In this document: positions 9,099 to 10,912 of the stretch, piece by piece
Layout of the letters: every line of letters starts with the position of its first letter
Numbering within the stretch: the stretch's first letter is position 1
Origin: Xanthomonas campestris pv. campestris str. ATCC 33913
GTDB lineage: Bacteria; Pseudomonadota; Gammaproteobacteria; Xanthomonadales; Xanthomonadaceae
Direction: 5' to 3'
NCBI RefSeq assembly: GCF_000007145.1
Contig: NC_003902.1
Span: 2,426,497 to 2,458,496, forward strand
Length of the DNA: 32,000 nt
Program-made: the position numbers and the translations under genes
The notes under the pieces: generated by a model
Database searches by the model: none
What the model was told of the DNA's origin: nothing
What the model saw: the letters and a program-made list of their open reading frames with translations, nothing else

Positions 9099-9584
9099 CT
9101 AATGCTGCGAGTTCCGTTTTGCGAGGGGAGTGGTTTGGCAGGCAAGACTTGATCCAAAGGCAGACCAAACGAATTCGCGATCGTGCCGACCGATACGCCA
9201 TTTCGCATAATGTATAGAAGGTGCCGTTAGGGCGAGCGGTGAAAGGGCCGTCAGCAGCCCCTCATGCGCCCCTGTGTGCACCGCGAGCACCACCAGCGCG
9301 ACCACCGCGGCGGCCGCGCTTAGCCTGTCCAACACTGATCGCCATAGCGCTCTCTCTGCCGGCGTGCCCGCTCGTTCTGCGTGAATTCTTGCCATCCACG
9401 ATCCGCCGTCGAGCTTTGCCATCGCGCAGAGTTGCGCAATTCGTTCATCTGACAGCGGCTTGTCGCCCATTCGCGCCTTAGAAAGCAGCTGGCGCTGAAT
9501 TCCCATTTTGGTCGCCAAAGCCATATCTGACGGGAGAGAGCAACTCTCCTTCACTTTGTCAAGTAGCTCGTCTACAGCTGCCAT
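9099..9584 (-). CDS. Putative phage immunity repressor 1 (HTH N-terminus, hydrophobic C-terminal segment). The 3' end reads through att site A.
   Basis: The ATG at 9584 has a GAGGA RBS. There is an HTH-like segment (SDMALATKMGIQRQLLSKARMG). The motif ERALWRSVLDRLS followed by a hydrophobic helix matches ERKAWSALWDRLS in ORF 20960-21424. It is divergent from the Rep operon. Codons for SIHYAKW are encoded by site A itself. Confidence 0.6.
   Translation of the reverse strand: MAAVDELLDKVKESCSLPSDMALATKMGIQRQLLSKARMGDKPLSDERIAQLCAMAKLDGGSWMARIHAERAGTPAERALWRSVLDRLSAAAAVVALVVLAVHTGAHEGLLTALSPLALTAPSIHYAKWRIGRHDREFVWSAFGSSLACQTTPLAKRNSQH
9200..9227 (+). other. XerCD-type hybrid att site A: ATTTCGCATAA-TGTATA-GAAGGTGCCGT (dif XerC arm + centre + phage arm)
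   Basis: I read this directly from the sequence. The left 17 nt are identical to the central dif-like site B on the opposite strand. It contains the reverse complement of TATACATTATGCGAA, which I recall as the attP/dif core of Xanthomonas filamentous phages. Confidence 0.75.
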
Positions 9585-9597
9585 GGTGTCCTCGTGG

Positions 9598-9626
9598 TTG
9601 ACAAGATGTGGTCCGATTAGATTACA
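9598..9626 (+). promoter_or_regulatory. Putative promoter of the Rep/structural operon of prophage 1 (TTGACA-N17-ATTACA)
   Basis: TTGACA is at 9598-9603, followed by a 17-nt spacer and ATTACA at 9621-9626. The same architecture (TTGACA-N17-GTTACA) is kept in prophage 2, although the surrounding sequence differs. It lies 14 bp from the divergent repressor start. Confidence 0.4.
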
Positions 9627-9711
9627 TTCGCTGGTGTCGTCCTTGTGGACCACACCCCGCCCCCCGGTTCCCCTCCGGGGCCCGGGTCAAGGGGTAGGGG
9701 ATAGGGGCTTC

Positions 9712-9879
9712 ATGGACACACACGCACTCGCACTGCTCAGCGCCTCCGCGCTGACCGTTGGCTTCGGGCTAGTCCGCCTCGCCGGCTGGGTGCGTGATCG
9801 CAAGCATGCCGCGATGGTCGCGCAAATTGAGCAAGCCGCGCTGGTCGCAATCGCATATCGCGAGGTGCGACGTGGCTGA
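9712..9879 (+). CDS. Small hydrophobic phage protein (55 aa), coupled to Rep
   Basis: The ATG at 9712 follows a G-rich RBS region. There is a TM-like segment ([22 protein letters not shown]). The stop TGA at 9877-9879 overlaps a candidate Rep GTG start at 9872 (GTGGCTGA). Confidence 0.45.
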
Positions 9880-10912
9880 CGGCACCTGCTCGTTCTGCGG
9901 TGAACCCACCGTCTACTTTTTCCCCGGTGGCCTCTGCGTTTCTTGTACGTCGAAGAACGCACGCATCCGCATGCAGGAACAGCCCACGCAATCGCGTGAG
10001 CTATCCGCGTTTGATGCATCTGTGGGCGTCATGCAGGCCGCTACGCGCCGCACTGAAATTGCCGCAGAGAAGATCCAAAAGAACAAGCGTGTGGTCGGCA
10101 CAAGCGTGCGTGAGTTCGACGCTGCCCATCCCATCGCATTGACCCCAGAGGGCCAGCGCGCAGCGCTGGCCCTTGGGCTTGTCCATTACAAAACAAGTGA
10201 CACGCGGGCCTCTACAACCGGCACCGTGACCATCGAAATTGACCCGCTACAAGCGCGGGCGCAACGGCTGCGCAAGTCCGTGATTACCGGAGCACGTCTG
10301 CATGACCAGGAAGCGAAAAAAGGCTCCTTCCGTGGTGCGTGGTATTTCCTCACGCTCACCTACCGTGATGGAAGCGACAGCAGCCCTCGTGACGTTAGCG
10401 AACTATTTAAACGCATGCGCGGCCACTTCAATCGCCTTAAATCTGGGCGCGCACGGTGGAACCGTGAAAGCTTTCGTTACGTATGGGTCGGAGAGCTCAC
10501 CCAACGATTCCGACCGCACTACCACGTGATGTTGTGGGTGCCTCAGGGCATGTTTTTTGGCAAGGTCGATCAACGCGGATGGTGGCCCCATGGCAGCAGC
10601 CAAATCGAGAAGGCCCGCAACTGCGTCGGCTATCTCGCCAAATACGCAAGCAAGTTCACCGCCATTACAGCTGCTGCTTTTCCCAAGGGATTTCGCACAC
10701 ACGGCTGCGGTGGACTCAACACCGAATCCAAGCGCGAATTGCGCTGGTGGAAAGCACCCAAAGACGCGCGTGAAGCTCTCGGCGGGGAAGCGGATATCCG
10801 CAAAGCAAAGGGCGGATGGTTCGACAGGCTTACCGGAGAGTTCTGGCCGTCTCCGTGGAAAGTCACATTCATTTTCGGCCGGACATTCGCCTGGAAGGTA
10901 GTCCAACTATGA
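9794..10912 (+). CDS. Rolling-circle replication initiator (gene II / phage CRI-type Rep)
   Basis: It has a HUH-type motif ([11 protein letters not shown]) and a catalytic Tyr motif ([10 protein letters not shown]). There is an N-terminal four-Cys zinc ribbon (CSFCG...CVSC). The true start may be the GTG at 9872, coupled to the upstream ORF, rather than the ATG at 9794. Confidence 0.8.

Follow-up and report, generated by a model that had tools for sequence, protein, structure and literature searches.

An inverted pair of filamentous prophages with attachment sites of opposite polarity at the chromosomal dif of Xanthomonas campestris pv. campestris ATCC 33913

Introduction

CTXφ is a filamentous phage integrated by XerCD at dif, where it forms arrays of directly repeated copies and yields hybrids when rolling-circle replication runs through a junction; near-identical heteroimmune variants differ in their rstR/ig-2 cassettes. 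In another setting, large inverted repeats produce the flip-flop isomers of plastid genomes and of the 2-micron plasmid, and in E. coli O157 and S. pyogenes pairs of prophages bring about inversions that span the terminus. The locus described here resembles both. It lies in a 32,000-nucleotide (nt) stretch of the chromosome of Xanthomonas campestris pv. campestris ATCC 33913 (NC_003902.1, positions 2,426,497 to 2,458,496; hereafter the window, whose coordinates are used throughout) and is a 12.15-kb double filamentous prophage (Inoviridae, Lophivirus) occupying the chromosomal dif at 9200-21350. The explanation that best fits the data as a whole, and one that we hold with considerable confidence, is that two phages with attP sites of opposite polarity came to reside together; that they differ by one variable cassette; that recombination between the copies has left the locus as an inverted isomer; and that the two cassettes would confer separate immunity.

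As in CTXφ, filamentous phages integrated at dif carry a sharply bounded repressor/operator cassette and form arrays that generate hybrids. Here, however, the copies are inverted – a matter of opposite attP polarity – exchange is by homologous recombination (inversion and conversion), and the repressors belong to a helix-turn-helix (HTH)–DUF3693 family rather than to RstR. With the flip-flop isomers the locus shares identical inverted repeats of kilobase length, the occurrence of both orientations in nature and the concerted evolution of the repeats. The difference lies in the segment that flips, which contains the chromosome's only two-armed dif together with one gene from each phage, so that with each flip phage modules are reassorted and att sites change from direct to inverted or back.

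Among phages of Xanthomonas, prophages of ΦLf at dif, attP sites of XerC-arm and XerD-arm types, mosaic filamentous phages and immunity cassettes are already known. According to the literature that cites the original work, dependence on XerC/XerD has been published for phages of both the ΦLf and the Cf2 type, and the attP of Cf2 is of the XerD-arm type (Yeh 2020). The second phage of our locus, for which we use the label P2, has a cassette architecture and attP polarity equivalent to those of Cf2 (a phage of X. citri), but the DNA of the cassette is only 66-72% identical and the core found here is of ΦLf, not Cf2, type. In XacF1 attP lies inside the open reading frame (ORF) of a regulator (PMC5666396). 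This regulator, ORF12, the counterpart of Cf's 'primary immunity determinant', resembles what is found here in that attP falls in the 3′ part of the ORF of an HTH regulator, the protein being split or given a new tail by integration; the difference is that two versions of the regulator stand at the two outer junctions of one locus. Finally, XafT of TLCφ is described in citing literature as an HTH_XRE + DUF3653 activator of XerD. HTH and DUF3653 domains also flank attP in the present locus, as separate ORFs; in contrast to XafT, the DUF3653 protein PSB15 has been reported to be a packaging-signal-binding assembly protein that is needed for packaging and not for integration (preprint 10.1101/2023.12.30.573655).

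Two inverted copies at the chromosomal dif

The two copies were compared base by base using the mirror map p <-> 30546-p. Between 10148-14810 and its mirror, 15736-20398, there are 0 mismatches over 4663 nt. The last mismatch before this identical core is at 10147, and mismatches resume past it at 14811, 14834 and 14858. Further out, 9661-10147 and its mirror (20399-20885) differ at 20 of 487 nt (95.9% identity), and to the left of 9661 (mirror: right of 20885) the copies cannot be aligned. An earlier note, made from the letters of this DNA alone, had described intergenic regions that differ and copies that become identical downstream of ~10150, and both descriptions are accurate; uniform identity along the whole phage, which it had named as one outcome that would contradict it, is not observed, since the comparison reveals diverged blocks. 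The note overlooked a second such block at the centre, a strongly diverged segment of 821 bp (14863-15683) with two DUF3653 genes, and it left three dif-like sites unnoticed.

These sites, at 9200, 15253 and 21323, share TGTATA and have the expected combinations of arms. The left junction (attL of ΦLf, 9200-9227, + strand) reads ATTTCGCATAA TGTATA GAAGGTGCCGT: the XerC arm and the central region come from the host dif and the degenerate XerD arm from the phage, and L016, which is lysogenic for ΦLf alone, has this same junction. At the right junction (21323-21350, + strand), the attR of the second phage, the sequence is GGCGCATATTC TGTATA TTATGTCATAA: here the degenerate XerC arm comes from the phage and the central region and XerD arm from the host dif, and the sequence is identical in all lysogens that carry the type-2 repressor end. 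The central dif-like site (15253-15280, - strand), ATTTCGCATAA TGTATA TTATGTCAGGA, is the only one with two good arms and points opposite to both outer sites. The sequence listed as 'dif' of ATCC 33913 by Carnoy & Roten 2009 (PMC2731167), TCCTGACATAATATACATTATGCGAAAT, is this central site read on the + strand.

That the locus is the chromosomal dif follows from empty sites, from the host flanks and from the single match to the dif core in each stretch compared. An empty attB, gaccgatacgcc ATTTCGCATAATGTATATTATGTCAGAA aaactcctgcag, is present in four X. campestris genomes (L096/L097/L101/L103). The order is hostL-ATTTCGCATAATGTATATTATGTCAGAA-hostR, and the site is likewise uninserted in other Xanthomonas species (L048, L086, L040), in which equivalent host sequences flank the dif core. 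A search with the dif 25-mer gave one match in each of 62 stretches, drawn from Xanthomonadales and from a few other species representatives. Insertion exactly at dif, junctions with hybrid arms and the lack of an integrase domain among the called genes of the locus mark the prophages as integrative mobile elements exploiting Xer (IMEX).

The affiliation of the phages is equally clear. The record of ΦLf-UK (NC_073754/MH206184) is a 100% match to 9202-15264 (6062 nt), and identity to the ΦLf genome MN263053 is 98.6-98.9%: the locus thus has the near-identity to type genomes expected of the genus Lophivirus (the ΦLf group). Its ORFs and Pfam matches (REP_ORF2-G2P, Phage_DNA_bind, Inovirus_G7P_1, Inovirus_capsid, Zot, DUF3653 and DUF3693) supply the gene set of that genus; ORF102, the DUF3653 protein and the HTH repressor are encoded on the strand opposite to that of the gII set.

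Two phages with attP sites of opposite polarity

Each end of the locus is known from elsewhere on its own. The circular virion genome of ΦLf from Taiwan (MN263053) consists of the type-1 repressor end (rep1, 99.8%), the core and the type-2 DUF3653 end (tail2, 100%), with the attP CAGTCC-ATTTCGCATAA-TGTATA-GAAGGTGCCGT; the single ΦLf lysogen L016 has the order hostL-rep1-core-tail2-hostR. Two single lysogens of P2 (L006/L007) have instead tail1-core-rep2-hostR, and their core is of a diverged 'P2-type' with a 472-bp insertion that carries an ORF of 91 amino acids (aa). The isolated phage Cf2 matches tail1 and rep2. Its attP comprises a degenerate XerC arm, TGTATA and TTATGTCA..., and lies on the strand opposite to the ΦLf attP relative to gII. 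Virion genome, single lysogens and Cf2 together establish the native phages as ΦLf = rep1...tail2 and P2 = rep2...tail1. The proposal of the earlier note that two different phages are present is therefore borne out by end cassettes that occur singly (rep1 in L016; rep2 in L006/L007). In addition, every haplotype of single-nucleotide polymorphisms (SNPs) over 9661-10147 stays with its own repressor type in the single lysogens. A simple duplication followed by divergence of the ends was also considered and is rejected, as each end cassette exists alone in single lysogens and free phages.

The two DUF3653 genes lie back to back about the central site. The type-1 gene, tail1 (14854-15180, - strand), is ORF9 of ΦLf-UK, that is, PSB15, and the type-2 gene, tail2 (15354-15692, + strand), is ORF112 of ΦLf; their proteins share 60% amino-acid identity. 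The DNA of tail1 is 71.5% identical to the ORF9 region of Cf2, and that of tail2 matches the ΦLf virion genome at 100%; there tail2 is joined to rep1 by way of attP. Given the linkage of tail1 to rep2 in L006/L007, the native partner of tail1 is the type-2 (Cf2-like) repressor and not rep1.

On a circular phage genome the diverged DNA forms one contiguous cassette – DUF3653/PSB15 gene, attP, HTH-DUF3693 repressor and a regulatory region built of repeat units – beyond which slight divergence (4%) continues up to the (+) origin within gII. In the model that we favor, ΦLf would bring a type-1 repressor and an attP whose XerC arm is that of dif and whose XerD arm, beyond the central region, is degenerate; P2 would bring a type-2, Cf2-like repressor and an attP in which the central region separates a degenerate XerC arm from the XerD arm of dif and which, with respect to the phage genes, lies on the other strand. 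It is this opposite polarity of the two attP sites that would make Xer recombination place the phages at dif tail to tail. After both integrations, in what we call state A, all three att sites would be direct repeats.

Inversion isomers

The window is not in state A but in what we call state B, with an inverted central site and with tail1 attached to rep1 and tail2 to rep2. Neither this swap of modules nor the reason for the inverted layout was noticed in the earlier note. We typed nine double-prophage loci in complete genomes. Five are in state A, three of them with all att sites direct (CP066966, CP075146 and CP077958) and two with centre and right sites direct (CP066970 and CP107717). The loci with an inverted centre are those of the window, CP155931, CP066939 and strain Xcc 8004 (CP000050). 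A reciprocal exchange between the copies would invert everything between the crossover points, and the window would be the resulting isomer, with rep1 beside the DUF3653 gene of P2, rep2 beside that of ΦLf, and the central dif reversed.

The most direct evidence comes from CP066966. Every module of this locus is 100% identical to the window, from which it differs by the flipped centre and by the exchange of four SNPs: 10132, 10138, 10145 and 10147 are reciprocally swapped between the copies. The pattern implies one reciprocal crossover within 10025-10131 (mirror 20415-20521) that inverted ~10.4 kb. The window and CP155931 on the one hand and CP066966 on the other thus show both orientations between identical flanks, as is expected of inversion isomers, and the reciprocal exchange of flanking markers is what homologous recombination predicts. 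Inversion by homologous recombination between the copies is documented to have happened more than once. A derivation of CP066939 from CP066970 by one crossover was rejected; the pattern of markers over 13000-14400 disallows it.

Might the orientation of the centre be an artefact of assembly, the real strain being in state A? An 821-bp centre between near-identical inverted repeats of 4.7-5.2 kb can be placed either way, AE008922 was assembled in 2002 from short Sanger reads, and state A is the arrangement of five of the nine typed loci. We nevertheless regard an artefact as very improbable: the independent assembly CP155931 (CP155931.1), with a chromosome of another length, is 100.000% identical to 11373-32000 (20,628 nt), inverted centre included; CP066939 and Xcc 8004 share the topology and have diverged cores, which makes misassembly unlikely; and CP066966 is one reciprocal crossover away from state B and two from state A.

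Inversion has a consequence for excision. In state B no prophage lies between direct att repeats, and Xer could thus invert one prophage or excise the whole dimer, not release a single phage. It also bears on the provenance of described phages. The left copy of the state-B locus, circularised, is the ΦLf-UK record, which accordingly joins the ΦLf repressor to the PSB15 gene of its neighbor. In Xcc 8004 (L094, CP000050.1, 3219-9609) there is again an inverted pair, its central site inverted relative to the hostL junction. The record of ΦLf2, which comes from this strain, combines tail1 (99.7%) with a repressor of a third type and a replication module, Rep_trans, of foreign origin; given the equivalent topology in 8004, ΦLf2 is probably another inversion chimera.

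Homogenisation of the core

Over 10148-14810 the number of matching positions between the resident copies is 4663/4663 for the window and likewise for CP066966; it falls to 4633/4659 for CP075146 and to 4369/4787 for CP077958. Taken from single lysogens, ΦLf and P2 match at 4201/5208 aligned positions over the core stretch. The shared core of the window is of ΦLf type and is identical (4663/4663) to that of L016. Isolated converted sites are present at 10024 in CP075146 and at 10006-10024 in CP077958. The suggestion of the earlier note that the core was homogenised by recombination between the copies is thereby supported: the identity here exceeds by far that between single lysogens, and inversion isomers exist. 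Non-reciprocal exchange would have overwritten the core of P2 with ΦLf sequence over 10148-14810.

An alternative is that a P2 variant which had already acquired a ΦLf core, by recombination between replicative forms in a co-infected cell or as a Rep-mediated hybrid at the origin of the kind known from CTXφ, integrated beside ΦLf. One boundary of the shared segment does fall at the origin, and the genus is often mosaic, ΦLf2 with its foreign gII/gV being an example. We consider this history rather unlikely. Identity between resident copies is graded among strains (100%, 99.4% and ~91%), the single-site conversion patches in CP075146 and CP077958 point to ongoing exchange in situ, and the shared core is identical to that of the resident ΦLf type. 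The far boundary, at 14810/14811, is off the att site, unlike that of a CTXφ-type hybrid. For this last reason – the origin boundary being the only one that fits – a CTXφ-style rolling-circle origin of the shared core was rejected, the more so since rolling-circle replication cannot terminate across inverted copies. Conversion in situ thus remains our preferred account, with the proviso that part of the homogenisation may have taken place between replicative forms before integration.

Repressors, regulatory regions and immunity

In its prophage form the type-1 repressor, the '18.2K' HTH + DUF3693 protein of ΦLf, is encoded by 9099-9584 (- strand, 161 aa). Of this ORF, the phage contributes only 9200-9584. 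Since the ORF spans the attP core, integration swaps out the C-terminus: the repressor of the free phage (MN263053) has 155 aa and a different tail. The prophage form of the type-2 repressor, also HTH + DUF3693, is encoded by 20960-21424 (+ strand, 154 aa), and its phage part stops at the right junction. As drawn in the earlier note (9099-9653 and 20960-21424), the repressor ORFs cross the phage/host junctions at 9200-9227 and 21323-21350, so that the 3′ end of each belongs to the host. When the type-2 ORF is continued through the deduced P2 attP into tail1, it regains a C-terminus that aligns with the end of the Cf2 repressor (54% identity over 155 aa, E=1e-52).

The two proteins had been thought to share only their layout and short motifs. 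The motif ER[AK][LA]W..DRLS followed by a hydrophobic stretch is indeed present in both, but they are true homologues, with 32% identity over 114 aa (E=1e-15), the same Pfam domain (DUF3693, besides the HTH) and membership of the same family, phrog_638. Their recognition-helix regions differ (QRQLLSKAR vs SRNSVSVWR). A separate profile, phrog_34897 (279 aa), matches both repressors (profile positions 1-131) and both DUF3653 proteins (153-279); as this is a single profile, some relatives seem to encode a repressor-DUF3653 fusion read through attP, like XafT of the Vibrio phage TLCφ.

The type-1 regulatory region (9585-9660), which cannot be aligned with copy 2, contains two 19-nt repeat units, TGGTGTCCTCGTGGTTGAC (9584-9602) and TGGTGTCGTCCTTGTGGAC (9632-9650), and an 8-nt inverted repeat, TGTGGTCC/GGACCACA; these elements are candidate operators, a candidate promoter of the gII operon, or both. 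The type-2 region (20886-20959) contains three 20-nt units (TGTCATACGGCGTAGGACAC and variants, at 20891-20910, 20919-20938 and 20942-20961). The earlier note had pointed to TTGACA-N17-[AG]TTACA in both copies, 13-14 bp from the repressor start, and correctly so: TTGACA (9598-9603) and ATTACA (9621-9626) form one such element at 9598-9626 (+ strand), 14 nt from the type-1 start codon, and TTGACA-N17-GTTACA lies at 20947-20919 (- strand), 13 nt from the type-2 start codon. Besides these 2 the window has no match (chance expectation 0.01), and Cf2 has TTGACA-N17-TTTACA in the equivalent position. A consensus sigma-70 promoter scan of both regulatory regions did not call the element, because its second hexamer is a poor -10. 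Both hexamers are the ends of successive ~20-nt repeat units, and could serve as half-sites of an operator, as a -35 element or in both roles. The units of the two regions are of a similar GTGTCC...ACA type and differ in spacing.

Each phage has a diverged repressor (32% identity) and an unalignable operator region with repeat units of its own, as expected of a heteroimmune pair, and the pair resides together stably: rep1 and rep2 occur jointly in AE008922, CP155931, CP066966 and CP075146. A third repressor type accompanies rep2 in CP077958, and every typed double lysogen pairs different repressor types. Differing recognition helices, differing unit spacing and this pattern of pairing make it plausible that the two repressor/operator sets give separate immunity and so allow co-residence. 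A contrary view is that the phages are not heteroimmune, either because superinfection exclusion is weak or absent in chronic phages or because immunity is based on RNA instead of on the HTH protein; the immunity of Cf has reportedly been ascribed mainly to an untranslated transcript (Cheng et al. 1999), and the repeat units of the two regulatory regions share half-sites. We think this doubtful, if worth keeping in mind, in view of the same differences in recognition-helix regions and unit spacing and of the invariable combination of different repressor types.

The origin and the 5′ part of gII

The replication initiator gII begins with GTG at 9872 (9872-10912, + strand, 346 aa, REP_ORF2-G2P), and its counterpart in copy 2 (19634-20674, - strand) differs from it by 3 aa. 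The (+) origin and packaging signal (PS) of ΦLf lie inside the gene: experimentally mapped to nt 245-365 of MH206184 (preprint 10.1101/2023.12.30.573655), of which nt 1 is window position 9872, they correspond to 10116-10236 (+ strand, coordinates transferred). Within this segment stem-loop (SL) 2, the ori hairpin with its nick after CTTG at ~10175, occupies 10144-10177, SL3 10178-10202 and SL4/PS 10203-10228.

The boundary of identity between the copies, 10147/10148, is thus the foot of the SL2 hairpin. Nick site, SL3 and packaging signal do not differ between the copies; SL2 differs at its foot in just two bases, 10145 and 10147, which in CP066966 are exchanged between its two copies. When single lysogens are compared, identity steps from 96% to 99.4% at the equivalent boundary.

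In the earlier note Rep was said to differ only within its first ~118 codons, as a diverged module that might confer separate origin specificity. The differences are indeed confined to the 5′ part of the gene, but there is no diverged module: the DNA is 96% identical, and of the 11 nucleotide differences between the gII copies 8 are synonymous, leaving E11D, P12T and P92A. Nor is origin specificity supported by three conservative changes together with an identical nick site, SL3 and packaging signal. It could still be argued that the phages are heteroimmune and also have distinct Rep N-termini that permit independent replication, with Rep differences limited to the first 92 codons and 10145 and 10147 altering the foot of SL2. 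We judge this quite improbable: only 3/11 nucleotide differences change an amino acid, the four Cys of the N-terminal motif are unchanged, the nick site, SL3 and packaging signal are the same, and in CP066966 the four ori-proximal SNPs have been exchanged between immunity types. We read the differing 5′ part of gII not as a specificity module but as the portion upstream of the origin that is linked to the immunity cassette; because it travels with the cassette, it had the appearance of a 'Rep N-terminus module'. It is conceivable that nicking at the origin promotes exchange between the copies.

Assessment and significance

Several points weigh against the explanation as a whole. The synthesised chimera of rep1 and tail1, ΦLf-UK, is viable and integrates, so the native linkage of the modules is not functionally obligatory. 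Conversion in situ is inseparable from infection by a P2 that was already recombinant and had a ΦLf core. Shared GTGTCC...ACA half-sites in the two regulatory regions leave room for cross-repression. That the boundary of identity coincides with the origin may be due to chance, and because crossovers inside the identical core are invisible, detectable junctions are biased towards its edge. Relating CP066939 to CP066970 requires conversion events beyond a single crossover. Lastly, AE008922 is a Sanger-era assembly with identical inverted repeats of 4.7 kb, and state B in this strain rests on CP155931.

With respect to published work, the left copy is ΦLf-UK base for base, and gene order, ori/PS within gII and integration at dif are as published. 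The phage was taken from ATCC 33913 (AE008922.1, 2435698-2441774), where a '12,151 bp ΦLf-homologous sequence', corresponding to 9200-21350, was also placed (preprint 10.1101/2023.12.30.573655). In this literature the left copy is taken as one prophage, and the authors note only that ORF9 differs from ORF112 of ΦLf. The repressor and attP of the second copy, the inverted central dif and the origin of ORF9 from the neighbor are not described in the ΦLf/ΦLf-UK literature that we examined. A wider search of the searchable literature found neither the second copy as a distinct, probably heteroimmune phage, nor attP polarity as the cause of the inverted arrangement, nor reference genomes as module-swapped inversion isomers or a crossover mapped beside the origin.

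An oddity of ATCC 33913 is thus explained: its catalogued dif (15253-15280) is a phage-phage hybrid, made of the attR half of ΦLf and the attL half of P2; it is situated between the two prophages and runs backwards with respect to the outer junctions. Prophage orientation at dif obeys a simple rule, being set by the polarity of attP. Species exemplars and laboratory models – ΦLf-UK and probably ΦLf2 – were cut from inversion isomers and join modules of two phages, which bears on the interpretation of experiments on PSB15, the packaging signal and integration. That the ΦLf-UK construct is infectious and integrates (preprint 10.1101/2023.12.30.573655) implies that the modules are interchangeable. 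For the revival of ΦLf-UK a prophage-free host was made in which AE008922 2435696-2447846 was replaced (preprint 10.1101/2023.12.30.573655); this segment maps to 9200-21350, all three dif-like sites included, yet the authors report integration at an attB. More generally, the strains provide a natural series for gene conversion and inversion between co-resident filamentous phages, with a crossover mapped to ~100 bp beside the origin, and a testable case outside Vibrio of the diversification of immunity cassettes among dif-integrating phages.

A more speculative idea, which we advance tentatively and think less probable than not, is that the inverted pair is a recombination-driven two-state switch and module shuffler. 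Exchange in the core, possibly stimulated by nicking by gII, would toggle both prophages between an excisable state with direct att sites, in which each can leave, and a state with inverted sites, in which only the whole dimer can be excised. The same exchange would invert the cell's only two-armed dif site and would reassort PSB15/att halves between immunity types, giving rise to new viable phages. The exemplars of the International Committee on Taxonomy of Viruses (ICTV), ΦLf-UK from ATCC 33913 and ΦLf2 from 8004, would then be inversion chimeras rather than natural products of excision.

Genes of the core, flanks and other arrangements

The stretch of 96% identity (9661-10147, + strand) holds a G+C-rich hairpin region, an ORF of 55 aa (9712-9879), in which G25C and R53L are two substitutions between the copies, and the first 92 codons of gII. 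The identical core (10148-14810, + strand; mirror copy in the second prophage 15736-20398, - strand) comprises the rest of gII, gV (10909-11205), gVII (11209-11460), gVIII (11488-11616), gIII (11644-12804), gVI (12815-13135) and gI/Zot (13137-14459), all on the + strand, and ORF102 (14479-14787) on the - strand. Within gIII a G/D-rich repeat with a period of 12 nt (12220-12513; mirror 18034-18333) encodes the glycine-rich linker of the adsorption protein. Its length varies among strains and with respect to ΦLf from Taiwan, and 19 extra residues have been noted (preprint 10.1101/2023.12.30.573655). At the edge of the identical core, between the stop of the DUF3653 gene and the start of ORF102, lies a perfect 8-bp G+C-rich hairpin, GTAGGGGC-ATA-GCCCCTAC (14819-14847; mirror 15699-15727), with SNP 14834 in its loop; it could serve as a terminator or as an origin for the minus strand. 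A scan of the whole window against Rfam gave no match.

The host flanks include, on the left, a very large protein with GH94/glycoamylase domains (4-7920, + strand), which is probably a cyclic beta-1,2-glucan synthase and whose full length in other strains is 2885 aa, and, on the right, RNase E (28146-31709, + strand). GC skew flips sign across the locus, as expected at the replication terminus. A TraX-family gene (21373-22023, - strand) adjoins the right junction. It is absent from the otherwise conserved hostL-dif-hostR site of the other Xanthomonas species L048, L086 and L040, and a TraX homologue is found beside Zot in a different filamentous prophage at the equivalent locus of another X. 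campestris genome (L102, CP066929, 3106-3783); this distribution suggests that the 'host' TraX may be a relic of an older dif-integrated element.

The dif locus of X. campestris is a hotspot with many other arrangements, of which L109 (CM002537.1, 11139-19913), L099 (CP017319.1, 3236-9609) and L026 (16122) are examples. They include an internally rearranged pair, insertion sequences in gIII and two phages in direct tandem whose repressors differ, and there is at least one more repressor/att type, its arm reading GAGGGTCTGTC.

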